Numbered from the stretch's first letter, positions 39,283 through 56,711 are shown. The stretch: 64,000 bases of DNA from a virus (IMGVR_UViG_3300045988_161114:32001-96000); one strand, 5' to 3'. The notes: a model not told the origin generated them from the letters alone. Numbers and translations: made by a program.

Positions 39283-40437
39283 TTATTCCGATTCTTCTAA
39301 TCCTATAGATGTAGATTGACTTAATGCACATATTGCTGTATCTGGAACTGCAAAATCGCCAGTAGATATATCGGCTATTGTCCCGTATACATCAGAGCGG
39401 ATTATTATATGTTCTATTTGTATATCTAATCCGTAAGTATTTAATTCTTTTACTAACTCTTCGAAATTAATATTGCCAGTTATAAGTGGAGTATATACAG
39501 AATTAAAAGATTCATTTATAGCTGACATAGCCATACTTGATGTTGTATTTTTATATTTAAAGTATACATCAAGAAGTAGAACCTCTGGCATCAATACGTC
39601 AAATGATTGTTCTGATGATGAAAGGTAATCCAACTCAGATAATATTTTAGACTTTATAAATGAGTAATTTTCATCTACAAAGTTTTTAAGATAATTATCT
39701 GTTGTAACGTAAATGTAAGTTTTACTATCATTAGGCTTTCTAACTATCTTGCTCGATCTAACAGTAGGGATTCCTGAAAGTATTCCTCTTATAGAATAAT
39801 CTGATGATCCATGTACACGCATTTTTGCGTATACAGTTCTTCTTCTTAGACTATCGTCTGATTCTTCTGATAGGTTTGTATAGATGCTACTGCTTATAGA
39901 TATAGAAACACCTATAGTTATAGGATTTGATTCATCAGAAATATCTATCTTTGTTCCATTTTTTATATCAGTTGAATCAGATGTAGTTATACGAACTGGA
40001 AGAGGAATAGACGTTTCGTTATGTGATACATAAACATTTTCTGTTACCTCTATTGATGTACCAATACCGAATAAAAATACTTTGCCGGCCTCTATTATTA
40101 TTTTGCCGTCCATGTATTTAGGGAACTGTGATCCATCATTCATTACTAGATTAACTATGGCATCATCTTTTGATATATACACATCAGAGTATATATTTCT
40201 TACAACCCCAAATTCATATGCATTCTTGGTTAGTAGGTCGCCAGATGCATATTGCGTATGTGTAGAATTAATTGCGGCATTAGAGTATGCAACAAGGTTT
40301 ACAGCTGTATCTGTTATCGCGTCTGTAATATGTCTTACTACAGTAGACTTTGAGGTATTGTTTATACCAGTATTCTCACTAATTCGCGCAGATATTTCCT
40401 GAGTCATTAACTCTTTATTAGTTAATTGATCATACAT
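39283..40437 (-). CDS. Baseplate J/gp6-like wedge protein
   Basis: 384 aa, directly downstream of and overlapping the gp25/W-like gene. The size and position match the conserved V-W-J order of contractile-tail baseplates. No rigorous motif check was possible. Confidence 0.5.
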   Translation of the reverse strand: MYDQLTNKELMTQEISARISENTGINNTSKSTVVRHITDAITDTAVNLVAYSNAAINSTHTQYASGDLLTKNAYEFGVVRNIYSDVYISKDDAIVNLVMNDGSQFPKYMDGKIIIEAGKVFLFGIGTSIEVTENVYVSHNETSIPLPVRITTSDSTDIKNGTKIDISDESNPITIGVSISISSSIYTNLSEESDDSLRRRTVYAKMRVHGSSDYSIRGILSGIPTVRSSKIVRKPNDSKTYIYVTTDNYLKNFVDENYSFIKSKILSELDYLSSSEQSFDVLMPEVLLLDVYFKYKNTTSSMAMSAINESFNSVYTPLITGNINFEELVKELNTYGLDIQIEHIIIRSDVYGTIADISTGDFAVPDTAICALSQSTSIGLEESE

Positions 40438-40849
40438 AAGAAACTCCGGTTATAGGTGAAAATACTATATTCACCTCTGATTGTTTATTTCTTGTAAATT
40501 GATAGTCTGTACCTACTGCAATTTTGAATAGTATCCTTTGTCCATCTAGTACATAATTTATTTGAAAGTTATCTCCAGAAAAGAATTTGTCTTCTGTAAA
40601 CGAATTCTTTATACTGGTAACTATTTCTTTAGCCAATGAATCGGTTACTGCTCTTCCTATAAATTTATGGAGATTGGCTCCATAAATATTGTATAGGTAC
40701 ATATCGGATGTTCCTGACATTAGTCTATGTCTAGCATTTGTTAGTGCTATCATATTTTGGTTTGACGATGTGTATATATCTCCATTGGATATGATTATAT
40801 CACCATAGTCATCCGTTATTATATCTCTACCTATCTCTTCTATTAGCAT
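40430..40849 (-). CDS. Baseplate wedge protein, gp25/GpW-like
   Basis: 139 aa. The pattern GDI..S...NMIALTNARHRLMSGTSDMYLYNIYGANLHKFIGR...SLAKEIVTSIKNSF resembles the GPW/gp25 family core (...Q.i...L.T..GE.....yG..l..llg). Confidence 0.55.
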   Translation of the reverse strand: MLIEEIGRDIITDDYGDIIISNGDIYTSSNQNMIALTNARHRLMSGTSDMYLYNIYGANLHKFIGRAVTDSLAKEIVTSIKNSFTEDKFFSGDNFQINYVLDGQRILFKIAVGTDYQFTRNKQSEVNIVFSPITGVSYV

Positions 40850-41169
40850 TAGAATAGTCCTGTAACCGTACTTAAAACTACACCATTTATAGCTGATTGT
40901 ATTCCTACATTTTTTGTTGGAACAGTTATTTCAAATGTTGGGACAGGTGTAATCATTGTAGATGGAATGCCTGACACTGCAACAGGGTTAAATTTATAGA
41001 ATCCTCCGAACACTACGGACGTGGGCGGAGATGATACTGACATTGGACCGTTTACAAATACACCATAATCTTTATGTGTAGATATAGACATACTGCCAGA
41101 CGATATAGATGTTACATCTTCTCTTAGGTCTATTAATGTCGTACTGTCTGGAGATGGTCTTATTAGCAT
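40849..41169 (-). CDS. Small baseplate-module protein, function unknown (106 aa)
   Basis: Start and stop abut the neighbouring baseplate genes. Ser/Thr/Pro/Val-rich. Confidence 0.45.
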   Translation of the reverse strand: MLIRPSPDSTTLIDLREDVTSISSGSMSISTHKDYGVFVNGPMSVSSPPTSVVFGGFYKFNPVAVSGIPSTMITPVPTFEITVPTKNVGIQSAINGVVLSTVTGLF

Positions 41170-41837
41170 TATGTTTTACCCGTAAAAACAGTAGTTGGCA
41201 TATAACATTCTTTTGTTCTTATTGTTTTATAACTATCAGTTCTTACAACACTTGGATCGACTTTCTGTTCAAAGTCTATTATATCTTCCATATGCGATGG
41301 TGTAGCTATGAACATATTTTGAGATTCTCCATATGTTCCTACAAACCCTTTATGGAATGTTGTGTCATATACTTCATTGGATAGTTTATTGAAATTTTCA
41401 AGTATACCGCGATTCTTTAGTTTGTCTTTTAATCTAGAATCGAATATCTTGTCTTTGTTTGAAAGTCTGTAATCAAACATGGCGCGTCTAGATATAATTC
41501 TAGCATCAGAATTCGCCATTAATATACAGCCAGTTGGAAATCCTTCTTTAGTGAAGAATACTTGAACTCTTGCCCCTATTAAGAACTTGGGGTCTGATAT
41601 TTGTGTAGCATAGGTCATATTTATTGGAATTAGAAGCTCTGCCATAGTGGCAGTATGTTCTGGTGCACCTTTTGGAATTCCAACAAGATATTGTCCACAC
41701 TGAACAGGATTCCCCATCATATCTGATAGGGTTTCCCCAACTAATCTAACAACAACAAATATTTGAGAACCTTGGAGAGATACTGTTTGTATCTCCCCAA
41801 TCTCTGAGTATGCCATTGAAGCTAATGTATTACTCAT
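41169..41837 (-). CDS. Baseplate spike/assembly protein V-like (OB-fold)
   Basis: N-terminal GEIQTVSLQGSQIFVVVRL ... IGARVQVFFTKEGFPTGCILMA resembles the gpV/VgrG OB-fold pattern (vGd.V.V.F..gd...p.ilg). Lies between the hub-like gene and the W-like gene. Confidence 0.45.
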   Translation of the reverse strand: MSNTLASMAYSEIGEIQTVSLQGSQIFVVVRLVGETLSDMMGNPVQCGQYLVGIPKGAPEHTATMAELLIPINMTYATQISDPKFLIGARVQVFFTKEGFPTGCILMANSDARIISRRAMFDYRLSNKDKIFDSRLKDKLKNRGILENFNKLSNEVYDTTFHKGFVGTYGESQNMFIATPSHMEDIIDFEQKVDPSVVRTDSYKTIRTKECYMPTTVFTGKT

Positions 41838-41838
41838 A

Positions 41839-44800
41839 TTAGTCAGTCGCTATCGAATATAGTATTCTAGCCTTTGTTGAGGCTTTTGTGTCTTTTGTAG
41901 CTCCCCACACTTTAGCTAAGCTTTCCCATGTGGTTTTAAGATTTTTAACCTGCAATTCTATAGGACTCAATTCATCATTCCATCCTAATAGTCCTGCTGT
42001 ATATTCTTGTCCATATACAGTCAAAGGCATCTTCATCAGCGCTCTGTGCCTCATGGTTATTCTTTCTTTGTTTGCTTCCCAAACATTTTTAAGAATACCC
42101 CATACTGCTATAACAACTGCTGCTACTACGATAGTTGCTGCTGCTGTTGCTATAAGTCCACCAGTACCAATACTGGCAGCAAGTCCAACAGTTCTGACAC
42201 CATTTATAACAGTTGCTATTGTTCTGCCTGCTGTAGCTACTCTTGCCCAGATTCCGCCTAGTGCGCCTTTCATTGAGGACAGTCCTCTAACTATAAAGCT
42301 AACCTTGCTGAATCTTGCCCAGCCTGATGCTACATGTCCTACTATAGGACCCCATAATGCAGTAGACACATAAGATGCCGCTGTTTTAAGTAACATTGCG
42401 GATGCTGCTGCAGCTGCTAATGATCCTGCTGTTGCCCATCCTACGTCCCAGAATCCTATTTTGGTTGGAGCTATGGATAATTTGCTATACATCTCTCCAG
42501 TAGGTGATGAGTTAACAGATACTAAAGCATATTCTCTTTGACCTTGTGCAAGCATCGAATAGAACATACCCAGCTTTATGTATAGTGATGAATATAAATG
42601 TGTTGCAGGTTCAACAAACATTCCTGGTGTAATTATTGTAATATATCCGTCGTCTTCAGTCAAGATATGTTGGACTTCCCTACACTTCATTACGCCGCTC
42701 ATTTGTCTTAATGAGTCAGAAATGTATGCATAATCACCTGGTGCTACATCTGGATTACCCGATATGATTACACTGCCTGTATACATCTTCTCAAGTTCTT
42801 CAAGGAGATATCCCTGGCCAGTTTTTATTGCCATGCCTTCTGTATTTAATGTACTATCAGTTAAATACGATGATTTAGTAAATGCAGGCATTAATCCGCC
42901 ATTAGATTTCATATCGAACATTTTGTTTTTACCAGTGCCAAAGTCACTTGGCTCTGTACCATATTCGACATTGGCTTGTGTTATCACATCCTGATTCAAT
43001 CTAAGCTGATTACTAATTATATTAGTTGCACTACTAAACATATGGAAGTTTGTAGCAGGAACCCATGCAGTAGAATCTATTGTTTTAGATCCCATTACTG
43101 AGCTTACTACATCAGCCACTTGTCCAGGATTGTCTTTTAGAACCTCAAATTTAGCTGTTGTTTCTCTTTGTCGTTTCTTTATGCCATCTGTGCTATTTAC
43201 CGGAATACCTAAGCTACCTTTTACATTTTTGGCATTTGCGGCTTCTTCTACTTCTTGAGCATGTTGGCTATCTTTATCTAACAGTCCTCCATTGATATTC
43301 TCAAATACCTCTGACGCAACAGAATGTGCAGTTTCATATCCTACCATAAGCTGTTCTTTAATACCTGTAAATATGGTGCATCTTGCACCTATATTTTTTA
43401 TAAGAGCCACTGATGATGGGAATAATCTTCTACCTGTTGTTATCACATCCCATACTGTTTTATTCAATACCGGGAAATTGACAAAGTAGTCGTTAAGAGA
43501 GAATGGGAATAGGTCATTCCATTCTGTAACAAAGAATCTGTCAACCATGTCAACATTCATCAGCCAGAAGTTTTCTAGATGATCTGTCGGACCTTTAAAA
43601 TCATAGAAGAAGAACTCACCTGAAGATGAATTCCATAAAGAATTTGATAACGAGAATCCGCTTTGACCAGATACACCCTGAGCAGCTGTACCAGATGAAT
43701 TTGTATCTACATCTTCACCAAGTATTTTAGGGTTGGCGCCAAAGTGCTGTAGTCTTGCGTTCTTAACTATTCTTGCAACTGCTGCTGATATGTACCTACC
43801 AGATGTATCACTAGCAAAAGTAGTAAATGGCAATACATCGCCGGCGAATATTAATTCGTTTTGTAGTTCTCTTCCATAACCCTCTGCAACTACTCTTACA
43901 ACATCTCCACCATCCGTTTCGGTTATAAGTCCGTTAAATACTACAGGAAGATCATCAATCTTATTGCCGTATCCCATTCTTATTTGAACTTTGTTACCGG
44001 CTTTAAGCCTTATTTGGTCCATTGCTACAACATTGGCGAAATCACTTCCTAAAGATGTTAAATCTAATTTAGTGTTGCCAAGTTTGTCTGCGGTATTGTA
44101 TCCAGTAGTAGGGTCTGTTGATGTATTCAAAGAGTTAAGAACTTCAAAGTATGCAACTGCAACAGGATTATCCTGATTGGCCATTTCTACACGAATATTT
44201 CGTACAGTTGATATTTCATAATATACCGCTTCAACACTTGTATTTATTAATTTAAATAAAGTGTTTTCATTATTGCCGTGTACTAGATATACCTTATATG
44301 TAGGGATAAGTTTTTCTAATCCCCATGTGTAATCTTTTACCATATTAGATATTCTAGCTTTACCTTGTAGATTAGGGTCCCAAGGTGTAGGGTCGGTATT
44401 AAATTCAACTGCTTCATTATTACGTTGTACTGCTACATTATCGTAATAGTTTGACGTATATCCAGCAGCGTCTCTGCTAAAAATACCAACACCGGCATTA
44501 CCTTTTGACACAGCGGCTGAGAGTGACATTGCAACTCTACCGTATTTTTGCCTAGATGTATTATTGCCATCTCTACTATCCTTACCTTGTAATGCTTTCC
44601 ATCCTGCACTATGTCCACCGTTGTGAGACATAGCTACTGCTAACACCTTATCTTGGAACGATAGTTTACTCCAACCAGGTTTAGCTGATAGATAATCTAT
44701 GTTTTTCTGAGTGTATAGCACAAATGCTTGATCTTGTAATTCTCTACTAGATATAAATGCTTTATATCCTCCAGGAATTGTCCAATATGAATCATTGTAT

Positions 44801-47800
44801 AGTGAAGATCTATTTCTTGGTGCTGTTTTTCTTATCCAGCCTATATCCATAAGTCCTTCTAGACCTATCTGATACATTCCTAGATATGATTCATTGCCAG
44901 ATGGATTTAGTCTTCCCCTTGACTCTATTGCTGCTATTGATCCTGCATAGCTTCTTAGAAGTGTACTATTTATAAGTGATGTACCTTTTTGACTTGTAAA
45001 GCCAGCACTAGATGCTGCTGCTATACCTTTCAGATCTCCACCGCCAAGACTGTAATCATTGAAGTCTGTAAATGGTTGATATCCGTTTGCAACAACAGAT
45101 TGCATAGCTGTAGATTCTTTTGGTAAAGCTATTCCGTCTTTTGCTTTAGGTTTCTCAAGTGTTCCTGGAGTTATACCCATACCTATTGCAGATTGACCAT
45201 TTGTTCCAGCTATTGCTGAACCAAGGTCTTCCCACCAGCTTTTCTTTTTACCTGATTCAGGAAGATTACTGCTAGGAGCACCTAACCCATTTATTGATCT
45301 ATGGAATGCTGCAGGGTCTACTGGTGTACCGTTTACATTTACTTGATAATGTAAATGTGGGCCTGTAGAATGACCAGTGCTACCACAGAATCCTATTAGC
45401 TGTCCAGCTATGACAGGTTGTCCTGGTTTAACTGCGAATGCGCTTAAGTGCATATACCATGTTGTTATACCACCAGCATGTTGAATGTAAACAGAATTAC
45501 CACCCCTTCCGCGATTAGATGCAACTGTTACTTTGCCAGTAGCTGCTGCATATATTGGAGTTCCAGTTGGACCTGCTAAGTCTATTCCGTGATGAAATCC
45601 TCCGCGTCTCATACCGAAAGGAGAAGATATTCGAACATGCTTCATTATTGATGACAAATCTTTTAGCCACAATCCTGATCCTGAACGAACACCCAGTTGG
45701 GCACCCTTAAGTGTACTTGATGTAAATTGTCCATTCACGCTATCTACACTGCCAGCAGAAACTGTACCATCTGGATTTATTGTTCCTGATGACGCAACGG
45801 CATTAACTTTTGTAAAGTTTCTTGTTCTGTCTGTACTGCTTCCCGGGCCATTAACCATCGCATTGGTATCTTCAAGTATTTCATCTATAAGTGGAGATGA
45901 TTGTTCCCACTTGGCCATTATCTTATCGCCATCAAATATTTGTTGGTCATATACAAATGGCAGGGCAGGTAAATCTTTCCATGAACTATATTCATCTGTT
46001 GAAGGAATGTCATGAAATATTTCTTTATATTTCATATCTGGGATTGCTTCACCAGAAAATGATGTACTGCTTCTATGAGTTTTATAATAACTCTTTTCTT
46101 TTTCCAAATCTTTTGATAAGGCATCAATAGTGTATTTATTGAAAGAGCTTCCAAGTGCACTTTTATATGCAGATGTAACTGCCTGTTCAAAATTTCTTAA
46201 ACGCTCTCTTAGAACTCTTTCCTCAGATGGAGTAGCTGAATGACTTTTTATAGCTTTAATATATTCTTTTATGAACATTGTAGATTTCTCTGTGTCTGTC
46301 ATATTAGAATATTTTTTACTTCTTAGCATAGGTTCTAAGAATAAGCCTACATCTGCGGTAGGGTCTTCCGCTTTCTTAACAGAAGAGTCTATATAAACTT
46401 TATATTCTTCAATAGCTTTAACTATTGGCTTGTTTATCTTATCAAGTACGTCTTTTAGTGCTGATGTATTTGCACCCTTTTTGTACTCTACGCTTGCCAT
46501 AGCAAGCAGATCTCTTATAGTCTCTGCTTGCGCTATTATGTCGTTGTAAGCTTCTTTGTTAGAGGCTTTTACAAATTTACTATTCTCAAGGAAGTCTGTT
46601 GAATCAGATTCTATAAACGAATAGTTATTTGTAATAACATTATTCATATTCCCAGTTGTAGAAGACTGAGATGAATCTATTATTACATATTTAACACCCA
46701 TTGCATTAACAATAGGGTTCTCTATTGCAATTACATCTAATCCTTTTAATGCTGGATATGTAACTCTTATATTTTTTGTAAATTCATCTACGCGGTCAAT
46801 AGCCATAGTAGCTGATGCCGCATCCATACCTTCTTCATGATTAGTTATAGTAGATATATTTATCTCTGTAGGAGAATGTCCTAAATATTGACAATAGGGA
46901 TAACTAAAATCCTGTATTGTTTGGTTTGCAAATCTATTTCTTCTTCTTATATTAATAGATTGTATTGCTATATTATCCTTATTTTTAGAAGAATTAGTGC
47001 CACCGATTAGTTCTCTTTTCCATCCTACATTTATTCTACCAGTCTCATCAAATCTAACTTCTTCATCTGATTTAACTTCTGATATGTTAGCATTGGTTTG
47101 TTGGCCATCTTTAGCATCTGTACCAGATAAGTCAACCTTTTTCAGAATTCTAAATGTTCTTGCCTCTTCCCAACATAAGTCATGAAGCTCTCTATGCAAT
47201 TTAATTGCGTCTGTAAAAACAATAGGGTATCCAAGATACAAATCGAAATCACGATTGTATCCCTGATTTATTATTTGTGTTTTATATTGATTTACATCTG
47301 ACCTGTAGAAGTCTACAAGTTTTTTCATTAAATTAGAATCACCAGGATTCAATTCATATTCAGTTTTGTATCTTTTAGAGCTTTTAGATTTTTTAGAGAT
47401 AGATTTAGAATTTGTTTTTGACTCAGCTTGCTGATTGAAAGATATGAATTTTATTGTTTTTGCTAGTGGCTTCCAGTTTATAGTTTGTAATCTTAATGAA
47501 ACAAAAGCCATACCTTGCATATTGTCTGATGCACCTAATTCAATTTCATATTCATGCAGTGCGTACATGAAGTATCCGTCACCAATACTTAATCCTAGCA
47601 TACTTAAGTCTGATGTACCCATAGCTTCACACCTTATGAACATATATGGGAATGACCTACATATAGATATAAGGTCACACATTTCTTCGACACTATCACT
47701 TTTAGACAAATCGAATGCGAAAGTCGCCAAATGTAGCGACTCCGCAAATCGAGATTTAGATGTCAATACAGATGTGTCCCTTAAGAACTCGTTTTGTGTT

Positions 47801-47880
47801 GTATAAAATTTATTAACTTTATCAACAGAAACTGGTTCTATATCCAATATTCCATTTATTGAAAAGGTAAATCTTGACAT
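41839..47880 (-). CDS. Giant multidomain tail protein (2013 aa): M23 peptidase + lysozyme/transglycosylase-like domain + hub (gpD/gp27-like) region + C-terminal TM cluster
   Basis: M23 motifs FHHGIDLAGPTGTPIYAA (HxxxD) and GHSTGPHLHYQV (HxH) at about 45300-45660. AAIESRG...SYLGMYQIG (catalytic-Glu-type lysozyme-like motif) at about 44560-44960. IRLKAGNKVQIRMGYGNKIDDLPVVFNGLITETDGGDVVRVVAEGYGREL is hub-like. Gly/Ala-rich hydrophobic helices at about 41990-42480. Confidence 0.7.
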   Translation of the reverse strand: MSRFTFSINGILDIEPVSVDKVNKFYTTQNEFLRDTSVLTSKSRFAESLHLATFAFDLSKSDSVEEMCDLISICRSFPYMFIRCEAMGTSDLSMLGLSIGDGYFMYALHEYEIELGASDNMQGMAFVSLRLQTINWKPLAKTIKFISFNQQAESKTNSKSISKKSKSSKRYKTEYELNPGDSNLMKKLVDFYRSDVNQYKTQIINQGYNRDFDLYLGYPIVFTDAIKLHRELHDLCWEEARTFRILKKVDLSGTDAKDGQQTNANISEVKSDEEVRFDETGRINVGWKRELIGGTNSSKNKDNIAIQSINIRRRNRFANQTIQDFSYPYCQYLGHSPTEINISTITNHEEGMDAASATMAIDRVDEFTKNIRVTYPALKGLDVIAIENPIVNAMGVKYVIIDSSQSSTTGNMNNVITNNYSFIESDSTDFLENSKFVKASNKEAYNDIIAQAETIRDLLAMASVEYKKGANTSALKDVLDKINKPIVKAIEEYKVYIDSSVKKAEDPTADVGLFLEPMLRSKKYSNMTDTEKSTMFIKEYIKAIKSHSATPSEERVLRERLRNFEQAVTSAYKSALGSSFNKYTIDALSKDLEKEKSYYKTHRSSTSFSGEAIPDMKYKEIFHDIPSTDEYSSWKDLPALPFVYDQQIFDGDKIMAKWEQSSPLIDEILEDTNAMVNGPGSSTDRTRNFTKVNAVASSGTINPDGTVSAGSVDSVNGQFTSSTLKGAQLGVRSGSGLWLKDLSSIMKHVRISSPFGMRRGGFHHGIDLAGPTGTPIYAAATGKVTVASNRGRGGNSVYIQHAGGITTWYMHLSAFAVKPGQPVIAGQLIGFCGSTGHSTGPHLHYQVNVNGTPVDPAAFHRSINGLGAPSSNLPESGKKKSWWEDLGSAIAGTNGQSAIGMGITPGTLEKPKAKDGIALPKESTAMQSVVANGYQPFTDFNDYSLGGGDLKGIAAASSAGFTSQKGTSLINSTLLRSYAGSIAAIESRGRLNPSGNESYLGMYQIGLEGLMDIGWIRKTAPRNRSSLYNDSYWTIPGGYKAFISSRELQDQAFVLYTQKNIDYLSAKPGWSKLSFQDKVLAVAMSHNGGHSAGWKALQGKDSRDGNNTSRQKYGRVAMSLSAAVSKGNAGVGIFSRDAAGYTSNYYDNVAVQRNNEAVEFNTDPTPWDPNLQGKARISNMVKDYTWGLEKLIPTYKVYLVHGNNENTLFKLINTSVEAVYYEISTVRNIRVEMANQDNPVAVAYFEVLNSLNTSTDPTTGYNTADKLGNTKLDLTSLGSDFANVVAMDQIRLKAGNKVQIRMGYGNKIDDLPVVFNGLITETDGGDVVRVVAEGYGRELQNELIFAGDVLPFTTFASDTSGRYISAAVARIVKNARLQHFGANPKILGEDVDTNSSGTAAQGVSGQSGFSLSNSLWNSSSGEFFFYDFKGPTDHLENFWLMNVDMVDRFFVTEWNDLFPFSLNDYFVNFPVLNKTVWDVITTGRRLFPSSVALIKNIGARCTIFTGIKEQLMVGYETAHSVASEVFENINGGLLDKDSQHAQEVEEAANAKNVKGSLGIPVNSTDGIKKRQRETTAKFEVLKDNPGQVADVVSSVMGSKTIDSTAWVPATNFHMFSSATNIISNQLRLNQDVITQANVEYGTEPSDFGTGKNKMFDMKSNGGLMPAFTKSSYLTDSTLNTEGMAIKTGQGYLLEELEKMYTGSVIISGNPDVAPGDYAYISDSLRQMSGVMKCREVQHILTEDDGYITIITPGMFVEPATHLYSSLYIKLGMFYSMLAQGQREYALVSVNSSPTGEMYSKLSIAPTKIGFWDVGWATAGSLAAAAASAMLLKTAASYVSTALWGPIVGHVASGWARFSKVSFIVRGLSSMKGALGGIWARVATAGRTIATVINGVRTVGLAASIGTGGLIATAAATIVVAAVVIAVWGILKNVWEANKERITMRHRALMKMPLTVYGQEYTAGLLGWNDELSPIELQVKNLKTTWESLAKVWGATKDTKASTKARILYSIATD

Positions 47881-47889
47881 TTGTTATTC

Positions 47890-50800
47890 CTAATAATTTT
47901 GATTCTGGAACCTTATTGTACTTCTTGATGCAGAATCTCCTTGAAGCATACTTCTTAATGACTGCTTCAATCTGTCGTTACTTCTATTATCTATTTGATA
48001 TCCGGCAACTGATACAGATTGTGCTTGTGCGCCATCTGTTATGTATGCAGAATTATTTTCTATTACTGGTAATGTTGGATTTGTTCTAGCAGTAGGAGAA
48101 TTATACATAGGAGATGTTGTGGTTGGAGATTCGGCCCCAACAGTTAAACCTACTATACCTAAACCAAGTCCGCCTAAGAGTATTGATTTCTTATTAGCTT
48201 TTATAGTTGAAATAATTTGATTTCCTATATCAGTAGCAGTATCAATAGTAGCATTAGTTGCCGCTTTTGACAATACTTCTTCACTAAGATTAACCTCTCT
48301 AGCTGTTGATTTTGGTATTCTTGGTATAGCAGCTTCAATCTTATCTGCTTCTTTCCCAGAGTATTTTGAACCAACCATGTTAGGACTATTTATAGTTATA
48401 TCTGCGCCATGTGTTGAAACAGCATCACCTATAAATTTACCTATATCTACAAATTCATCAGCACCAGTAAATATTTCAGGGATAACATTTTTAACCCATT
48501 CTCCTATTTCGTCATATGAGGCAAATCTGCTTTTACCTGCAGACTCTCTCATAGATGCAATAGTTTCAAGAAGTGAGTTTGCATTTGAACCAGATCGTAC
48601 AGTTTTAAGTACGTTCTCTTGCATGGCACCAGCTACAGCCTGTGCCATAAGTGCCCTTTTATTTATAGATTCTTCTATAAGTTTTCTAGACGGATCGCTT
48701 ACACCTAATGCCTTTACGGCATCTGACAAATCTGATCCTCTTTTTCTTTCTATTGCTTGAGATAGAAGTTGTTGAAATTCCGTTATCTCTGCGGCACTAA
48801 ACTTACGTTGTTGAGATTTAACCTGCTTCAAGATATTCTCTTGAAACTGATCTTCTGCTACAGTTTTTGCTCCAGACTTTAATGGGTTCACTACACCATA
48901 TTGTTCCATCTCGGCCATTTTGGTATTAAATGTTTTTAAGAAATTCTTTTCATTTACAAATATATTATTTTGTAACGACATCAAATCTCTTAACTCTTTA
49001 TTAACCTTGTTATTATTAAGATCGTCTGCTCTGAATACGTGAATCTTGTCATCATCAAGGTCGCCGGATGCTGATGCCAATTGGTTTTCACCCATAGCAA
49101 TTACTGTGCCTTTTTGTTTTATGGATGGATCAACAAAGAACGTTACAGCTTGTGCGCTAAGTGAGCTAGATGCAGGAGTACGTATTGCCAACCCTAGACT
49201 ATCTTTAATAGCATATGGTGTTTTTGATTTACGATTAAGTTTGAAACCAAGCGACCTTGCAGTCTCTTCATTTATGAATACCGCATTACGTCCAGCTTTT
49301 TCTTCCTGTGCTCGTATTATCTCTGCGGCCCCTGTTAATGATACAGCAGTAGCAGTTACACCATTTCTTGCAGTTCTTCTTGTAGCAGCTTTTGCAATGG
49401 TTGTATTAGTAGATTTTAATTTAGATTTAAGCTCTTCAAGATCTGTTAAATAAGATTGTTTCGCTATATCTATATATCTACTATTTTCACCATCTCTCAT
49501 AGCCCTCTGATATTCCATCATTGAAACCAAAACATTACGCTTCAACTTGTCTGTTTCCGCCATGATGTCAGAACCATGAATATCTTTAATACCGCTATTA
49601 TCGCTGTTCAGTAGGTTTATAGATAATGACCTTAAACCTATTTTCTTAGATGACATACCTTCTGGAACTATGAGTTTTACAGATGCAACACCATCATTAT
49701 TGATCATATCTTTAAGATGTTTTGCTGCAAACTCTTCCCTATCTTTTGCTTCAAATAAGGCTCTTATAGATTTAGGATCATCGCCGAATATAGAATCAAT
49801 AGACTGCCCATCAACTATGTTTTGTAGTTTTCTTGACCTTAGTTCGTATCTTGAATCTTCATTAGCTTCCCCTATTAATTCTAATGAATCTATTGATACA
49901 CCTGCTGCCTTTAATTGGTCTGCTGCCATCCAGTCCATAGTTGCTTTTGATGTATTTGCACCAGTAAGTTCCCTAGTACCTTCTTGTAGCACACCGAAAG
50001 AACTTAGTCCTAATGCTGTCATGTTCTTTTTTCGCATTGTTTCATATATATTGGCAAAATCATCTTGTAGTGATTTAAACATATCTTCTGGACTTATTCG
50101 TCCATTCGAATAGTCGATCATTCTTGATGAAGACTGCTCTATGTATTTTGCTAGGCCTTTTTCTATATTATTCGGATCAATATGAATATCTCCGCCAGCA
50201 AGATTCAGTGTTATAGGAGAATTGGCCTGTGAGCCAACTTTACTTATCATATCTATCATTGTTGCCATTGCTGTCTGAGATGATTTACCATCAGACATTG
50301 CATTATTGGCAAATGCGGCACCAATAATTTTAGATTGATTAACGTCACTAATCTTACCTGACGCATCTATTTCTTTTTTGATTCTGACAAATTCTCTACC
50401 GGCAGGACTTATTCTCCCATCTGAATCCAGTTCTGTATTGTCAACTATTCTGTTGACTATATTTTTAAGGCTAACCTGGTCTGGGCTATATCTATATTTT
50501 CTGATAGCTCTATCTATTTCTGTTATATCAGAACCTATTTTAGTATCAGAACTTCTAACCATCCATTGAGATGTGAAATTGATACCAGAGTTTCTTTCTA
50601 GATATTCCCTTATCTTTGTGGCATTTTTGTCATCGGAGTTTGCTACAAGACTTAAAAGTCTTTTAAAGTATTTTTTGGTCCCCTCTCCATAGCTTTGAAG
50701 TTCCTCATCTGATGCCATTAGACCAGTTACAAGTGCATGGAAATTTGCCTTGCCTATTTTAGCCATTTTATTTATAGAGAATTTTAGGCCATTGGTTTTA

Positions 50801-52884
50801 TCAGCAGACACTAATCCTAATTCAGACATAGCATATCCATACATAGCATTTTTGTATGAATGCTTATCTAGAATTATTGCATTCGATTTCAAGTCTCCAA
50901 ACAATTTGACAATATTATCATCATTATTTGATAGAGAAGATGTTCCTGCTCCAATTAACTTGTATTTACCGCCTGAATTTACAGCACCAGATAGCTCTAC
51001 AGTTTCAAAATGTCTTGGTGCTCTAATCTCTTCTCCATTAGAGAATCCTATAAGCTCTCCACCTTTGAATGATACTGGGCCTTCATTAGTGCCATTTATA
51101 AGAGATTGTATTTTTTCAGTAGCATCACTAGCAGCTATAAAGTCTTTGCCGCCAAGTGTTACTGTAGTGGCTTTCTTAACAGTGTAATCTGACTCTTGTA
51201 TTATTGATTGACCATCGCCTATAGCTGTGCCTGTAACCCAGCTTCCTAAGCTATAGTTATAATCATATCCTACAGCATTAAATCCTATATTTTTAACGCC
51301 ATTAAATGATGACGTATCTACTCCATTTTTAGATAGTTCCATAACAGCTTTGCTTAGATTATCTTCTCCTCCTGATGTAGAAATATTACCACGTGAAGCA
51401 TATGTTGCATCACGGTCAGGAGATGATACTATACCAGTATATACAGAGTTATTATTGTCACCCATGAATACCTTTGCCTGATCAGAATGTCGTATATTGT
51501 TGAATCCAGGATTTAGACCGTTTCTAAGTCTATCAAGCTCTATGTTTTCTACAATATTTTTATACTCTTCGGCGTTGATATTCTTTATACCTCTTATTTC
51601 TCCAGTCCTATCGTCCCTATAAAATTGCTCACTTATATTTGTAAGTTTATTTTTTATAGGCATATCAGATATATTGACAAGATCTGTTTTAGGTCCTACA
51701 TATTCTATTCTGTCAGAGAATTTTTTAGATACTTCATTAAGAGGTTTATTAGTATTGAGGTGCTCAAACAGCATTGACTCTACAGGAGTAAATGCTTGTG
51801 ATTTTACTTCTTGTGCAGATGTAGAAAATGGTCCACTAGTATTAGTGTATATATTCCCTTTTACTTTTGTGCCATCACCAAGCAATTGAAATTGATTATA
51901 AGATTCGGCAGAGTATATATTGCCGCCTTTTGATACAAATTTGGAGCCATCTTTACTGTACTCTTCCATATGCAGAGAGCCAGTAACACCATCTTTAGTG
52001 ATACTTATTTTACTATCTTCAAAGCTTATCTTGCTGTTTTCTGTATTATTGCCTATATTAGATGCTATTCTAAATGCATCTATTTCTGGATAATTCAGCT
52101 CTTTTACGAGATACTCTTTTATTGCACTGGTCTTCTGTTCAGATGTAGCACTAATATTTAAATCTAATGATTTACCTCTATTAAAGTTTGTTTCTGGAAC
52201 ACTAGACAAATTTAACTTCTGTAAGTTTGAAGTAGGGATAAGTAATCCTGTTTCTGCGTCTACTACACCTGTTATTGCATTAGGCATCGATGAACTTAGC
52301 AGCGCAGATAATATGTTTTTATCTTTTACGTGGGCCGGAAGCGACTGTTTTATTTGCTCAAGATTCTTATTGTTAAGCCATGAATCAAATATATTATTAA
52401 ATAGGTCTTCGCCTAAAACAGATGATATATCTTGTCCATATATCATAGAGAAGTTTCTTTTAACAGCCTCTTTATATGATTGCATACCCTTCTGGGTTAA
52501 TTTATGCATTTCAGACAACGCCACTTGAGCTTCTCTGCTGCTAGTATTGTTACCAAATCTACCTATATTTAAAGATGCATAAGCTTGTGAACTTAGATTC
52601 ATATGCATCTCTTTTGCATTTCTAGCAAACTTCTCAGTAAACCTGTTTGCTGCCCTTCTGGATAATCCTCTGTATCCAGAAAGGTCAGCTTTATTAAATG
52701 CTATATCGTCAGCTATTTCTCTTTTCGCTCTAGAGATTCTTTTAGATATTTGAAGAGAATTGCCAACATAAGCACCTATGCCCATACCTAATGCTGCTGC
52801 TATAGGATGGTCTTCTGGGTCTTGAGACATTGCGCCTAATATTGCTCCGCCTATCATAAGTTTAGGTTGTTTAATTGGATCCAT
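47890..52884 (-). CDS. Giant tail-internal/virion protein (1664 aa); candidate tape measure or ejected protein
   Basis: Uninterrupted 5-kb ORF. Gly/Ala-rich hydrophobic segments at both ends (MIGGAILGAM..AAALGMGIGAYVG; ILLGGLGLGIVGLTVGA). Otherwise polar and helical-looking. No catalytic motif recognised. Confidence 0.4.
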   Translation of the reverse strand: MDPIKQPKLMIGGAILGAMSQDPEDHPIAAALGMGIGAYVGNSLQISKRISRAKREIADDIAFNKADLSGYRGLSRRAANRFTEKFARNAKEMHMNLSSQAYASLNIGRFGNNTSSREAQVALSEMHKLTQKGMQSYKEAVKRNFSMIYGQDISSVLGEDLFNNIFDSWLNNKNLEQIKQSLPAHVKDKNILSALLSSSMPNAITGVVDAETGLLIPTSNLQKLNLSSVPETNFNRGKSLDLNISATSEQKTSAIKEYLVKELNYPEIDAFRIASNIGNNTENSKISFEDSKISITKDGVTGSLHMEEYSKDGSKFVSKGGNIYSAESYNQFQLLGDGTKVKGNIYTNTSGPFSTSAQEVKSQAFTPVESMLFEHLNTNKPLNEVSKKFSDRIEYVGPKTDLVNISDMPIKNKLTNISEQFYRDDRTGEIRGIKNINAEEYKNIVENIELDRLRNGLNPGFNNIRHSDQAKVFMGDNNNSVYTGIVSSPDRDATYASRGNISTSGGEDNLSKAVMELSKNGVDTSSFNGVKNIGFNAVGYDYNYSLGSWVTGTAIGDGQSIIQESDYTVKKATTVTLGGKDFIAASDATEKIQSLINGTNEGPVSFKGGELIGFSNGEEIRAPRHFETVELSGAVNSGGKYKLIGAGTSSLSNNDDNIVKLFGDLKSNAIILDKHSYKNAMYGYAMSELGLVSADKTNGLKFSINKMAKIGKANFHALVTGLMASDEELQSYGEGTKKYFKRLLSLVANSDDKNATKIREYLERNSGINFTSQWMVRSSDTKIGSDITEIDRAIRKYRYSPDQVSLKNIVNRIVDNTELDSDGRISPAGREFVRIKKEIDASGKISDVNQSKIIGAAFANNAMSDGKSSQTAMATMIDMISKVGSQANSPITLNLAGGDIHIDPNNIEKGLAKYIEQSSSRMIDYSNGRISPEDMFKSLQDDFANIYETMRKKNMTALGLSSFGVLQEGTRELTGANTSKATMDWMAADQLKAAGVSIDSLELIGEANEDSRYELRSRKLQNIVDGQSIDSIFGDDPKSIRALFEAKDREEFAAKHLKDMINNDGVASVKLIVPEGMSSKKIGLRSLSINLLNSDNSGIKDIHGSDIMAETDKLKRNVLVSMMEYQRAMRDGENSRYIDIAKQSYLTDLEELKSKLKSTNTTIAKAATRRTARNGVTATAVSLTGAAEIIRAQEEKAGRNAVFINEETARSLGFKLNRKSKTPYAIKDSLGLAIRTPASSSLSAQAVTFFVDPSIKQKGTVIAMGENQLASASGDLDDDKIHVFRADDLNNNKVNKELRDLMSLQNNIFVNEKNFLKTFNTKMAEMEQYGVVNPLKSGAKTVAEDQFQENILKQVKSQQRKFSAAEITEFQQLLSQAIERKRGSDLSDAVKALGVSDPSRKLIEESINKRALMAQAVAGAMQENVLKTVRSGSNANSLLETIASMRESAGKSRFASYDEIGEWVKNVIPEIFTGADEFVDIGKFIGDAVSTHGADITINSPNMVGSKYSGKEADKIEAAIPRIPKSTAREVNLSEEVLSKAATNATIDTATDIGNQIISTIKANKKSILLGGLGLGIVGLTVGAESPTTTSPMYNSPTARTNPTLPVIENNSAYITDGAQAQSVSVAGYQIDNRSNDRLKQSLRSMLQGDSASRSTIRFQNQNY

Positions 52885-52889
52885 TTTTA

Positions 52890-55800
52890 TTACCTATTAT
52901 ATATAGTCATATCGAAATCACCATGACCACTATTGCTTATATTGACATTTACTGCTCTTACGCCATTACGATATAGTTCATCTTTTATCATATTCACAGC
53001 ATCAAACCTTTGTTGGGCCTTAGTTCTTCTAATAGATTTAAGCTGAGTTGTAACCTGATCTTCTGCAAGTATTGCTGATTGTCTTTTTAGATCGTCTTGG
53101 TCATCTTCGTAATAACCAAATTCTATGGCATTCTCACCACCTATATTTAATGTTCTAAGTTTTATATCTTTGACATTTAATCTAGGGTCCCATCCTGCAA
53201 ACTTCTCATCAGGCATTCCTGTTGCATCGACTATTAATTGCTCTGCTCTTCTTTCTTGTAGGTATTCTCTAAATGATATACCTATGTCGGCATCGCCACT
53301 TCTTTTATATGCACCATAAACTTGTGAGTTATTTTGTATAAGTTGCTGCTCTTCATCTTGTAGATATTCTGAGACATCTCCGCCGGATTCAATTACATCT
53401 TTACGGCTCCACAACATCTTGTACATTTCTGATACATTGTTTCCATCAACAATAGCAGCAATACGTTGTCTATCAGAGTCCTTTGCATTTACAAATGATG
53501 TAAAATACTGTTTCTCTTCGCTGGATAATCCCATATATGCAGAACTTACATCTTTTTCGGTATCAAGTCCTGATGCCAATGCACCGTATGTAGTCTTGTA
53601 AGCTTTTGCCTTTGCCTGATTCGCTATAAATAAATTGCCTTTAACATTTTCTCTATAAACTTTCATTTGTTTATAGTATTCCAATGCTTCAAAGTAATTA
53701 TCTATATTACGTTTTTCTTGTGTATGCTCTGGTATATATGATTTATCAAATGATTTATAGCTTTCCTCAAAGAATGGTCTTATGAAATGTTTAAATGGTT
53801 CATTCCATAATGCTGTATCAGAAGCTATTAACTGAGTTTTCTCGTAATCTTCTATAGCTGTTCTTTGGTGTAGTAACTTACCGGCAGGTCTGAAGAATGT
53901 TAATCTCTCTGTCGGTAGTTCTGCATTATGAGTTATTGTTTCCCATAACTTACCAAGAACCTCTCCACCAACAGATACATTATCAAAATCTTCATCAGTC
54001 TTATACTCTGCAAATGTTTTCTTTTGCGCTCTTCTTTGTAACTGATCCCAAGTATTCTCGAATATTCTTTTCTCGGACTCTGTCATTTCACCAGAGTTAT
54101 ATCTAGACTCCATTAACTCTTTTGCATTGTAGAATTCACTTGAGCCGTATGCTACATCTGATAGAACTTTAAATTTATGTATATCAGGATATTCTTCTAA
54201 ACTCAATCCTGCAACTTCTGGATTGTAATGTTCATATCCTGCACCTGGCATTCTATCATAGCCAAGTTCTACATTTGCGTAGTAGTTACCTTTTGAGAAA
54301 TCTGTGTAATATTCTCCTCTGGGAAGCCAAGATGGAGCAACACTGTTATGTAAAGGATTTGCTCTATCATACAATACACTAGATGACATTGGAACTATAC
54401 GACGCAGTATATCCGCTGCGCCAAATAAACCACCAAGGTTTTGTTCAGTAAATTCTCTTGCAAAGTTTGTTGATTCACCTGACCTTGCTAACTGGTTCTT
54501 TTGAGAAAAATCGCCTACAGCAAAATCACTTAGCACACCAGATACTGCCCATCCTTTAAGACCTATAAAGTCTGATGCAGAGTTATAGATATATTGTGCT
54601 GATTCTGCATATGGAGAGTATGTAAGGTTCTTACGCCCAGTAATCATTTTGTCATTTATCAATGACTGTTCTACATTTGAATAGTTTACTGGAACTTCAA
54701 AACTTGGTTTTCTTGTTATATCTCCAAAATTATATGCAAATGCATATGAGTTCTCATCACTAACATAGTAGTCCTGTGGTACTGACTGAAGATTTTCCAT
54801 CAGCTGAGCCATGTTAGGATTTATTCTATCTGGTTTAATTATTTGACCTATTGTACGTTCAAATATTTTACCGGCCCAACCACCTACTGATACGTCCATA
54901 CCCCATATTGGATATGGCATATCATCTTGGTGCATTTCTTCAAATCTATATGGATTTTGTAAATAATCTATTGGATTAAGGAATGGATTTAGGTCTTCTT
55001 TGGTGTCTCCATCGCCATAAAGAATTTTATCTTTATTGCCTGCAATTAATCTTTGATACCAGTTCTTAGTGAAGTATTTTACACCGCCACCCTCTATATC
55101 CGTAGACCCAGAGAACCATAATGCATTTGATCTTTGTTCAACATCTTCACCGTATAGATATCTGTCTTTTAACGAATCTGATGATTCACCAGCTAAAGCA
55201 CCAGGAAGAAATGGTAATGCTAATGCTAGTCCAGCTAGTGCACCTCTCATTGCCCATTTTTTAGTATTAGCTATTCTGCCTAATGATGATCCTATCGGCG
55301 TATTACTTACAAGCTTAGATACGCTAGAGTTTATAACATCACCCTCTGCATGAGCAACCCTTTGTCCAGCTTTATATCCATCATCTGACAACACAGATGG
55401 AACTACACGTTTACTGTAAGCTACAGTACCGGCAAGCATTGCTCCTGCTAATGGGAATCCAGCTAGTCTTAGTAACGATGTTGAACCAGGGGCTACATAT
55501 TCTTGTTGAGTTGTATACTCTTCAAACCTATCAGATACTGTTTCTGCATATGCTATTCTAGCATTTACTGCTGTTGTTGCTACACCTTCTAATATACCCT
55601 GGTCATATCCGCTTCCACTTGTACCGATTACTTTAGCCATATTATCCAGTGTATAATATGCTGCACCAAGTATACCAAGTTTTACTGCACCATGTTTAAC
55701 ATATCCAACTGCCAAGTCTGATATTTTCATATCAGCATTTGCATGTCTATTTATTCTTCCATATTTATTTATAAATCTAAATATACCATTATTTTCATTA

Positions 55801-56711
55801 AACAGTGTTCCGCCAAGTTCTTGAACGAATCCTAATGGCTCGTTGACCATATTGAAGCCTTGAGCTATACCTTGTCCTATTACAGATTTAATCCATCCCT
55901 TATTTATATTAGCGTCTTTTGCATCTGCAATTATTGTAAATGGAGCTTCTGTATCAAGAATATTTTTAGACAATTCAAATATTTCTTTTCTAGAAGAAAA
56001 GCTCATATCCTGCTGATGTATAATATGTCTTCTTAGTATTTTATTATACATTGAACTTTGAGCATGGCCATTTGTATGACCTGTCCATTCTGATGTAACA
56101 AGTCTTGCATTGCTTATTACTTCTTCATCACTAGAAGAAAATAATTTACCATCTCTGTATAACAGCCCGGTAGATATGTCCGCCGATGTTATACCTCTGT
56201 TGCCATATTTATGTGCTAATTCTTCAAAATATTTCTTTTGATGTTTTAATAGTTCAGGAGTGAAGAAATGCTCACCATTTTGAGTTGCAAATGGCTGCAT
56301 TATATGAGAAGTCTGGAATGTTCTTAAAATAGAAAAAGGGGAGAGTTCCTCAAACGCCCTAGCAGTGTTCATTGCTAAGTTTGTTAAGGTGACTCTCCCG
56401 CCGTATGATCGGATAGCATCATCTGCTGTTCCATTAATTGATTCAGATAAATAACTTAGAGTTATGTAATCTCTAATTTTATTTTGTGCGCTTTGCCTTT
56501 TTAGTATCTCTTTTACCGTAAATAATGCACCTGCTGATAATCCATACTTTGTTATAGAGCCTATTATTTCTTTTGTAGCCTGTATCTCTTCATATGTATT
56601 TACATCATCTGATGTATACATATTATATGGGGATTTAACATCCCCTGGTTGTATTCCCTTATCAAATACTTTTTGGCCAAAAATATTTGCAGCTAGATTT
56701 TGTACTGACAT
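52890..56711 (-). CDS. Giant tail-internal/virion protein (1273 aa); candidate tape measure
   Basis: First gene after the chaperone-like pair, which is the canonical tape-measure position. Internal hydrophobic Gly/Ala segments (LLRLAGFPLAGAMLAGTVAY, ALAGLALALPFLPGALAG). Aromatic-rich. Confidence 0.4.
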   Translation of the reverse strand: MSVQNLAANIFGQKVFDKGIQPGDVKSPYNMYTSDDVNTYEEIQATKEIIGSITKYGLSAGALFTVKEILKRQSAQNKIRDYITLSYLSESINGTADDAIRSYGGRVTLTNLAMNTARAFEELSPFSILRTFQTSHIMQPFATQNGEHFFTPELLKHQKKYFEELAHKYGNRGITSADISTGLLYRDGKLFSSSDEEVISNARLVTSEWTGHTNGHAQSSMYNKILRRHIIHQQDMSFSSRKEIFELSKNILDTEAPFTIIADAKDANINKGWIKSVIGQGIAQGFNMVNEPLGFVQELGGTLFNENNGIFRFINKYGRINRHANADMKISDLAVGYVKHGAVKLGILGAAYYTLDNMAKVIGTSGSGYDQGILEGVATTAVNARIAYAETVSDRFEEYTTQQEYVAPGSTSLLRLAGFPLAGAMLAGTVAYSKRVVPSVLSDDGYKAGQRVAHAEGDVINSSVSKLVSNTPIGSSLGRIANTKKWAMRGALAGLALALPFLPGALAGESSDSLKDRYLYGEDVEQRSNALWFSGSTDIEGGGVKYFTKNWYQRLIAGNKDKILYGDGDTKEDLNPFLNPIDYLQNPYRFEEMHQDDMPYPIWGMDVSVGGWAGKIFERTIGQIIKPDRINPNMAQLMENLQSVPQDYYVSDENSYAFAYNFGDITRKPSFEVPVNYSNVEQSLINDKMITGRKNLTYSPYAESAQYIYNSASDFIGLKGWAVSGVLSDFAVGDFSQKNQLARSGESTNFAREFTEQNLGGLFGAADILRRIVPMSSSVLYDRANPLHNSVAPSWLPRGEYYTDFSKGNYYANVELGYDRMPGAGYEHYNPEVAGLSLEEYPDIHKFKVLSDVAYGSSEFYNAKELMESRYNSGEMTESEKRIFENTWDQLQRRAQKKTFAEYKTDEDFDNVSVGGEVLGKLWETITHNAELPTERLTFFRPAGKLLHQRTAIEDYEKTQLIASDTALWNEPFKHFIRPFFEESYKSFDKSYIPEHTQEKRNIDNYFEALEYYKQMKVYRENVKGNLFIANQAKAKAYKTTYGALASGLDTEKDVSSAYMGLSSEEKQYFTSFVNAKDSDRQRIAAIVDGNNVSEMYKMLWSRKDVIESGGDVSEYLQDEEQQLIQNNSQVYGAYKRSGDADIGISFREYLQERRAEQLIVDATGMPDEKFAGWDPRLNVKDIKLRTLNIGGENAIEFGYYEDDQDDLKRQSAILAEDQVTTQLKSIRRTKAQQRFDAVNMIKDELYRNGVRAVNVNISNSGHGDFDMTIYNR

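Follow-up and report, generated by a model that had tools for sequence, protein, structure and literature searches.

Among the phage proteins that combine a baseplate hub with enzymes directed against the cell wall, gp147 of Bacillus phage 0305phi8-36 has been described as a 'hyperplastic homologue of the T4 gp27 hub', in which transglycosylase, NlpC/P60 and M23 domains are fused to a gp27-like hub. Hidden Markov model comparison (HMM-HMM, folding domains 1 and 3) placed it as a divergent homologue of T4 gp27 and P2 gpD (PMC2147016). The hub of Staphylococcus phage 812, gp110 (9EUF/9EUG), has gp27-type domains I-IV together with a CHAP 'cleaver', for which zymograms show activity, and a 'clamp' domain, basic and helical, for which membrane binding has been proposed (PMC13433997). 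Here we analyse a gene of this kind in a 64,000-nt stretch of viral DNA (IMGVR_UViG_3300045988_161114:32001-96000, referred to below as the window), where it occupies 41839..47880 on the minus strand and encodes a protein of 2013 amino acids (aa). We conclude that this gene very probably specifies the central hub protein in the baseplate of a jumbo myovirus that is AT-rich and uncultured, and that its product is a member of the enlarged ('hyperplastic') hub family, of which gp147 was the first to be described.

The counterpart of the 2013-aa protein in a cultured phage is gp037 of the Acinetobacter jumbo phage vB_AbaM_ME3 (YP_009595869, 2329 aa, 'baseplate hub protein / peptidase'; ME3 below). 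An N-terminal module, an M23 domain, both halves of the hub, a hydrophobic segment and a C-terminal hairpin are collinear in the two proteins, over four matching segments, and the neighbouring genes match; however, identity is only 22-32%, gp037 carries a staphylococcal-nuclease domain before the M23 domain and is without a lysozyme-like domain, and its C-terminal hydrophobic segment is not membrane-grade. Like the 2013-aa protein, gp147 of 0305phi8-36 combines a gp27/gpD-type hub core with an M23 and a glycan-cleaving domain within the same gene order, and the M23 domain and two hub blocks match in sequence. It differs in that its SLT domain is N-terminal, its NlpC/P60 and M23 domains are C-terminal and there is no hydrophobic C-terminal tail. 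The N-terminal module is not detectably shared with gp147: a profile of it, searched against the open reading frames (ORFs) of the 0305phi8-36, P2 and Mu regions (L002-L004), gave only non-significant, collinear gp147 matches (E=0.1-1). The likeness to phage 812 gp110 (hub, hydrolase and basic helical region) is one of concept, since no sequence similarity was detected and gp110 has a CHAP domain instead of M23 and GH23-like domains, a length of ∼700-800 aa rather than 2013 and a Gram-positive host. T4 gp27-gp5 does the same job, with a hub ring at the tube tip and a tethered muralytic domain, but the lysozyme of T4 is carried by a separate spike protein, gp5, and gp27 is without an enzyme, an N-terminal extension or a hydrophobic tail.

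Two other large virion proteins with a muralytic domain are phiKZ gp181 and T5 Pb2. Neither is a hub protein, and they share with the 2013-aa protein only the general idea of a virion-borne lysin; phiKZ is not among the listed tblastn matches. An earlier note on this DNA, made from the sequence alone, had compared the protein with these two and taken its combination of parts as unprecedented, but gp147, ME3 gp037 and phage 812 gp110 are closer precedents. Hubs joined to an endopeptidase and a glycan-cleaving domain have been known from publications since 2007, and the protein is a new metagenomic example of this combination. The same note's picture of an all-in-one envelope-penetration device holds as a functional idea but not as a novelty, since hub-hydrolase fusions go back to a description of 2007 and phage 812 has a hub with a proposed membrane-binding domain in addition. 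Modestly new are a lysozyme-like family without a curated model, a helix of transmembrane grade in a hub and an unassigned module of 690 residues. The parts of the gene, with the evidence for each in brackets, are as follows:

41839..47880, minus strand: whole gene, 2013-aa probable baseplate hub protein with built-in predicted cell-wall hydrolases (ORF list, Shine-Dalgarno-like AGGA, homologs P0001-P0017)
45811..47880, minus strand: N-terminal module, residues 1-690, with conserved blocks at ∼1-150 and 280-445, beyond which it is helical and less conserved (homolog alignment)
45286..45642, minus strand: Peptidase M23 domain (LytM/lysostaphin-type), residues ∼747-865 (Pfam, Protein Data Bank [PDB], conserved residues)
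44971..45285, minus strand: variable low-complexity linker between the enzyme domains, residues 866-970 (not alignable among homologs; the gene is split here in L005)
44491..44970, minus strand: lysozyme-like (GH23-type) predicted muramidase or lytic-transglycosylase domain, residues ∼971-1130, putative catalytic Glu986 (family, AlphaFold2, Foldseek, hhalign)
42571..44400, minus strand: predicted hub core (gp27/gpD/VgrG-like), residues ∼1161-1770, with a variable insert at ∼1537-1607 (ME3/gp147 homology, PHROGs, Foldseek)
43873..43986, minus strand: most conserved hub block, residues 1299-1336, QIRMGYG...FNG...AEGYG (family alignment, model strands)
42076..42465, minus strand: basic Ala/Gly/Val-rich region, residues 1806-1935 (composition/charge map; predicted helices, low confidence)
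42091..42189, minus strand: single membrane-grade hydrophobic segment, 33 uncharged residues 1898-1930 with core 1909-1927 (Kyte-Doolittle, Hessa)
41842..42054, minus strand: conserved C-terminal element, residues 1943-2013, MRHRALMKMPLTVYGQEYTAGLLGWND hairpin and two helices (family alignment, ME3 match)

Position of the gene and homology of its product

The 2013-aa protein is encoded by one uninterrupted ORF, with an AGGA 8 nt 5' of the ATG, and its stop is separated by 1 nt from the start of the next gene, indicating tight coupling. Considering that G+C content in the window is 34%, a 6-kb open frame cannot have arisen by chance. Independent metagenomic contigs, as long as 353 kb, carry copies with 99% and 92% identity; contigs related to the window come from wastewater and other metagenomes. 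A megablast search of the gene against 50,697 phage records gave no match. Relatives of the hub core were absent from the 185,579 bacterial and archaeal genomes searched, which therefore offer no clue to the host. All of the motifs that the earlier note had quoted were located in the protein by a motif scan: HHGIDLAG at residues 763-770, HSTGPHLHYQV at 837-847, AAIESRG at 983-989, SYLGMYQIG at 998-1006, MSHNGG at 1084-1089 and the hub-like QIRMGYGNK...AEGYG at 1299-1336.

The minus strand from ∼29 kb to 64 kb of the window forms a myovirus tail and baseplate module, in which the order of genes is sheath (PHROG 16991, E=5e-69), small chaperone-like genes and then those for proteins of 1273, 1664, 2013, 222, 106, 139 and 384 aa. 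The immediate neighbours are:

47890..52884, minus strand: upstream 1664-aa protein in the tape-measure position (syntenic with ME3 gp036, E=1e-4, and with 0305phi8-36 gp146, 'hypothetical tape measure')
39283..41837, minus strand: downstream baseplate genes for proteins of 222 aa (spike position), 106 aa, 139 aa (gp25-like) and 384 aa (gp6/gpJ-like) (PHROG 25235, PHROG 6, ME3 matches)

The 139-aa protein matches PHROG 25235 and the 384-aa protein PHROG 6, 'baseplate wedge', and ME3 gp039 and gp040 are the respective matches of the 106-aa and 139-aa proteins. ME3, the nearest and sole cultured relative (sheath identity 38.7%), matches the window gene by gene over gp032-gp046. In 0305phi8-36, gp145-151 lie in the same order, with gp146 as hypothetical tape measure, gp147 as hub (annotated 'baseplate hub protein; contains proteoglycan degrading domains') and gp148 as a gpV-like protein, and the gene order of Mu gp42-gp47 also agrees with the module. 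The gene for the 2013-aa protein is thus found where a hub gene is expected, between the tape-measure-position gene on one side and the spike, gp25-like and gp6-like genes on the other. The 1664-aa protein is assigned as tape measure by gene position alone: its similarity to ME3 gp036 is very weak, it has otherwise a sub-threshold match to the C-terminus of the lambda tape measure, and no family match was obtained.

Sequence comparison connects the C-terminal half of the protein with the same hubs. ME3 gp037 is collinear with the hub core over residues 1165-1536 (E=1.7e-28) and 1608-1994 (E=1.1e-31), gp147 matches residues 1220-1342 (E=7e-12) and 1690-1874 (E=7e-9), and PHROG 8809 (E=2e-66) and PHROG 20474 (E=1e-39) match the core as well. 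By collinear homology, the non-enzymatic core therefore groups with the enlarged hub family of gp147 and gp037. Within the most conserved block, for which a low-confidence model has three beta strands, I1300, R1301, G1303, Y1304, L1311, F1315, N1316 and G1317 are invariant in 20 sequences, including some that are only 21% identical. By eye, residues 1299-1336 resemble P2 gpD 64-106 and Mu gp44 49-88, and residues 1730-1752 resemble the strand pair 'V-x-H/L-x-L-x-x-x-G-x-x-T' at the gpD/gp44 C-terminus; neither resemblance is significant.

We considered whether the protein could itself be a tape measure protein with lytic domains, carried inside the tube and ejected, in the manner of T5 Pb2 and the tape measure proteins of mycobacteriophages. 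Many PHROG matches are to 'tail length tape measure' families, most of the tblastn matches are tape measure proteins of actinophages and staphylococcal phages, and a hydrophobic C-terminal segment is present. However, these PHROG matches and the ∼1,600 tblastn matches are confined to the M23 domain (residues ∼700-870), a separate 1664-aa gene syntenic with 0305phi8-36 gp146 occupies the tape-measure position, and homology and fold both link the non-enzymatic parts to hub proteins. Since neither homology to tape measures outside the lytic domain nor the gene position of a tape measure was found, we regard this explanation as extremely unlikely. On the same grounds of gene position and structural homology of the non-enzymatic parts, the tape-measure reading was rejected, as was a plain 'endolysin' reading suggested by the PHROG label.

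The predicted hub core and the N-terminal module

Foldseek searches with the low-confidence model of residues 1161-2013 returned tail-tip, hub, central-spike or tube proteins as 15 of the 17 top PDB matches. These include the HFTV1 tail, phi812 baseplate chains (9euf_E and 9eug_E, at ranks 2-3, which are not necessarily the hub protein), the Chi tail tip, the Mu chain 9ki1_G (probability 0.95), the gpD-like 3d37, diffocin and the spikes of PVC, AlgoCIS and the Anabaena and Streptomyces contractile injection systems. The pyocin R2 hub, VgrG and T4 gp27 (2z6b_D) appear lower in the list, and the chains 6u5h_A, 8v3w_H, 9qgm_8A and 8gra_G are also listed. A search of the BFVD database had the ME3 hub as its best match (E=6.7e-22) and also returned further 'baseplate hub' proteins, SPO1 gp12.1 and a '43 kDa tail protein'.

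Several results weigh against the assignment as a hub. The AlphaFold2 model of residues 1161-2013 is poor (predicted local distance difference test [pLDDT] 46, predicted TM-score [pTM] 0.24), because the alignment stayed shallow; profile searches with the hub and N-terminal regions added only nine new proteins. It is too poor for domains to be counted, though the pattern of matches is consistent. The PDB matches extend over 150-200 aligned columns with probabilities of up to 0.99 and weak E-values of 7e-4 to 0.9, and the fold evidence thus rests on the identity of the matched proteins rather than on the scores. The hub region gave no Pfam match, its profile found nothing among PDB sequences (hmmsearch), and hhalign against P2 gpD and Mu gp44 gave probabilities below 1%, with single sequences as templates and hence low sensitivity. 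In the same way, hhalign of the hub and N-terminal profiles against single P2 gpD, gpU, gpV, gpW and gpX and Mu gp43-46 sequences found nothing. The hub-like region of the earlier note is therefore borne out by gene order, by homology to ME3 gp037 and gp147 and by fold matches, but not by the profile searches that the note itself had named as the check. The predicted fold of residues 1161-1770 is consistent with hubs of the gp27/gpD/VgrG type, while membership by gp27/gpD profile was not found. On synteny, bridging homologs, the literature and the fold matches of a poor model taken together, we consider the assignment as a hub well supported.

All full-length homologs conserve the N-terminal 690 residues, which are weakly shared with ME3 gp037 (residues 6-465 against 21-549, E=1.8e-14) and with P0030 and P0031, two relatives that have no enzyme domains and retain the N-terminal module together with the hub core. 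No match to the module was found in Pfam, PHROG, NCBIfam, PDB or the phage database; its profile found none among PDB sequences, and in tblastn searches against phages the window sequence had no match and the ME3 sequence matched only itself. A Phage_P2_GpU match in P0030 (E=7e-4, sub-threshold, in one of eight members) aligns in position with the second block and is a lead rather than a finding; the P2 gpU relatives retrieved were all ∼99% identical to P2 gpU and could not be used for a gpU family profile. The module is probably a lineage-specific structural element that serves attachment within the inner baseplate.

Alternatively, the protein could be a giant ejected virion lysin of the phiKZ gp181 or T7 gp16 kind, with an incidental likeness to hubs and the true hub encoded by another gene. 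Its size and its M23 and lysozyme-like content resemble such proteins, the PDB matches of its M23 domain include podovirus 'Gp16' and 'Internal protein' chains, and sequence profiles do not confirm the hub. But there is no other hub candidate in the module, the gene lies exactly between the tape-measure and spike positions, and the Foldseek matches are hubs. Moreover, P0030 and P0031 keep the N-terminal module and the hub core without enzymes, indicating that the conserved function is structural. We therefore consider an ejected lysin very unlikely and retain the assignment as a hub.

Predicted cell-wall hydrolase domains and their exchange among relatives

The peptidase domain is unambiguous. 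Residues 762-856 match Pfam PF01551 with E=1.9e-33 and 114.9 bits, well above the gathering cut-off of 28.7, and solved M23 chains in the PDB match down to E=1.4e-27. The zinc ligands and catalytic histidine (H763/D767 of the HxxxD motif, H842/H844 of the HxH motif and H811) are invariant in 14 homologs and align with a solved M23 enzyme, 3slu. Since all of these residues are invariant, the domain is not a degenerate one of the EnvC/NlpD type. This is certainly an M23 endopeptidase domain, with a predicted active site that is intact, and the 'complete signature' of the earlier note is upheld.

A second enzyme domain had been suspected there from a lysozyme/lytic-transglycosylase-like motif ∼150 aa downstream. 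It begins ∼115-125 aa after the M23 domain, close to that spacing, and proves to be a real domain. An exhaustive HMMER search with residues 951-1140 yielded 337 relatives at E≤1e-3, the best of which is 42% identical, with alignments over ∼976-1120. In the family alignments there is no variation at E986-S987 (30 sequences), G1001, Q1004 or G1006, and at least 90% of sequences retain Y1003, H1086 and G1089, so that the conserved motifs are E-S, G-x-Y-Q-x-G and a near-invariant H-x-x-G. Members occur as stand-alone proteins of 150-300 aa and also inside proteins of 600-3000 aa. The AlphaFold2 model built from 30 sequences has a mean pLDDT of 83 (core above 90) and a pTM of 0.79, and places the Glu-Ser pair at the end of the first helix (model helix 22-37). 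The 50 Foldseek matches listed for the PDB are all lysozyme-superfamily proteins, almost all of them of GH23 type: they comprise MltE, Slt, MltF, MltC, MltD and g-type lysozymes, together with i-type lysozymes and pesticin. In addition, hhalign against the Pfam-positive SLT domains of homologs gave E=0.002 with the three motifs in register, and the domain of one relative, P0033, matches 'baseplate hub + tail lysozyme' proteins of T4-like rhizobiophages. Some relatives have sub-threshold matches to an Rpf-like Transglycosylase and an aggregation-promoting-factor C-terminal domain, over the Glu-Ser motif.

Other results speak against this assignment. Foldseek probabilities reach 0.97, with E-values of 0.1-1.6 and TM-scores of 0.42-0.49, which are weak, and residues 881-1160 have no match in Pfam (including SLT, PF01464), NCBIfam or PHROG. 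Searches of the PDB with the single sequence and tblastn against the phage collection found nothing for this region, the family profile retrieved only a chance caspase match among PDB sequences, and no Pfam or NCBIfam model reaches the family members. The putative catalytic Glu and the predicted lysozyme fold, on either of which the earlier proposal might have failed, are both in place, with E986 at a helix end and all Foldseek matches within the superfamily. We conclude from the model and the family conservation that residues ∼971-1130 form a predicted, divergent muramidase or lytic transglycosylase of GH23 type with its putative catalytic Glu in place; between hydrolase and lytic-transglycosylase chemistry the sequence cannot tell.

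The slot between the M23 domain and the hub (window 44401-45300) contains at least four types of lysozyme cassette among homologs (P0003-P0017) that are otherwise 44-50% identical. The cassette is an SLT domain (PF01464) in P0004 and P0017, a sub-threshold Phage_lysozyme2-like domain in P0003, a 'GESGGxY...GKYQ' type without a Pfam model in P0005 and P0015, and the lysozyme-like type just described in the 2013-aa protein. P0027-P0029 begin at the lysozyme-type domain. In L005/L006 (7263-13249), where the flanking gene order is otherwise identical to that of the window, the hub gene is split into a 911-aa ORF (N-terminal module and M23) and a 1082-aa ORF (SLT, hub and C-terminus) that lie 2 nt apart; the fused form is kept in at least 17 homolog clusters. 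Judged from these comparisons, the enzyme slot of the hub protein is exchangeable. Cassette swapping, the split gene and the enzyme-free relatives fit a conserved assembly core that is decorated with exchangeable lysins, which is the pattern described by Hardies et al. 2007 (PMC2147016).

The split also raises the possibility that the fused ORF works as two proteins or modules, one with the N-terminal module and M23 and the other with the lysozyme-like domain, hub and C-terminus, for example through proteolytic cleavage in the 866-970 linker. That the same content is encoded by two adjacent ORFs in L005/L006, that P0027-P0029 start where the second protein would, and that the linker is variable and of low complexity are all in keeping with it. 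On the other hand, there is no evidence of processing, and at least 17 clusters keep the fusion. We consider such a division of the window protein improbable; it would in any case be compatible with the assignment as a hub and not a replacement for it.

The C-terminus and a proposed mechanism

The earlier note had described several Gly/Ala-rich hydrophobic helices, forming a transmembrane cluster, in the last ∼160 aa. As a description, 'several hydrophobic helices' is fair; residues 1806-1935 are 21% A, 13% G and 12% V, and residues 1813-1934 have eight K/R and no Asp or Glu. The stretch lies 80-210 aa from the C-terminus, however, and does not reach the end, and the cluster was overstated. 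The only membrane-grade 19-residue window of the whole protein is 1909-1927 (Kyte-Doolittle 2.58, position-independent Hessa sum -1.79 kcal/mol), and the next best, 1813-1831, is marginal (1.47 and +2.8 kcal/mol). Where a transmembrane cluster would comprise at least two membrane-grade segments of at least 19 residues, there is one. The 'cluster' reduces to a single plausible helix, transmembrane or buried, predicted in a basic amphipathic region. In the close clade, its position (∼105 residues from the C-terminus) and hydrophobicity are kept and its sequence is not. It is followed by the conserved hairpin RHR..P..VYGQEYTAGL.GWN, which is recognisable in ME3 gp037 (QPLLFFPLIAHGKPYVAGMMG); R1944, H1945, R1946, P1952, E1959, Y1960, T1961, A1962, G1966, W1967 and N1968 are invariant in this C-terminal element.

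In P0028-30 and ME3 the equivalent segment, and in gp147 the most hydrophobic window, score +2.4 to +3.7 kcal/mol. Since the segment is so much less hydrophobic in these relatives, it could be a buried structural helix, in the core of a trimer or as a plug that touches the spike or tape measure, which never enters a membrane. This is a serious contender, which we consider nearly as likely as not. There is only one membrane-grade segment, the highly conserved hairpin after it is typical of a protein-protein interface, and a transmembrane helix would need shielding in a soluble virion anyway. Against this, the close clade conserves hydrophobicity and not sequence, as is typical of lipid-facing helices, the flanks of the segment are basic only, and there are precedents in the clamp domain of phage 812 and in the membrane pore proposed for T4 gp27/gp29.

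By analogy with T4 gp27-gp5 and phage 812 gp110, the hub trimer would close the tip of the tube and, after sheath contraction and loss of the spike, the enzyme domains on their flexible linkers would act on the peptidoglycan. The M23 domain would cut peptide cross-links and the GH23-like domain glycan strands, which would result in a local hole in the peptidoglycan. More speculatively, the basic Ala/Gly-rich C-terminus with its hydrophobic helix might contact the cytoplasmic membrane or insert into it and, together with the tape measure, help to form or anchor a DNA conduit.

A bolder version joins two proposals, namely that the hub itself, and not only the tape measure, supplies the membrane-crossing element and that the N-terminal module is an undescribed baseplate fold. 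Residues 1806-1935 would then be stored in the hub or tube, be released after digestion of the wall and insert as a trimeric conduit or anchor, and the N-terminal module would be able to exist as a separate M23-bearing protein. We consider it unlikely that both proposals hold.

Other genes of the module and implications

Two ORFs on the minus strand just downstream of the sheath gene, of 224 aa (59995-60669) and 465 aa (58570-59967), match the same N-terminal part of PHROG 9206. In the longer one, residues 309-394 are endonuclease-like (PHROG 452), and a match to the C-terminus of ME3 gp031, 'major structural protein', covers residues 148-192. The two may be paralogues in tandem, or else a homing endonuclease may have disrupted a tube-like gene. 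In L005/L006 (1-2182), the ortholog of the 1273-aa virion protein of the window (52890-56711) is ∼1680 aa long and contains an intein (Intein_splicing and a faint LAGLIDADG match); the window copy is without this insertion.

The hub protein described here illustrates in detail how jumbo myoviruses place enzymes that digest the wall within the hub at the tail tip. One lineage shows the enzyme slot swapped between at least four lysozyme-type cassettes, left empty, or split off as a separate gene. The lysozyme-like family, with at least 337 members, merits a curated model and might yield virion-associated lysins, and the conserved hydrophobic helix in the hub offers a lead on how contractile-tailed phages cross the cytoplasmic membrane. 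These findings leave current understanding unchanged and extend the picture drawn from 0305phi8-36 gp147 and phage 812 gp110.

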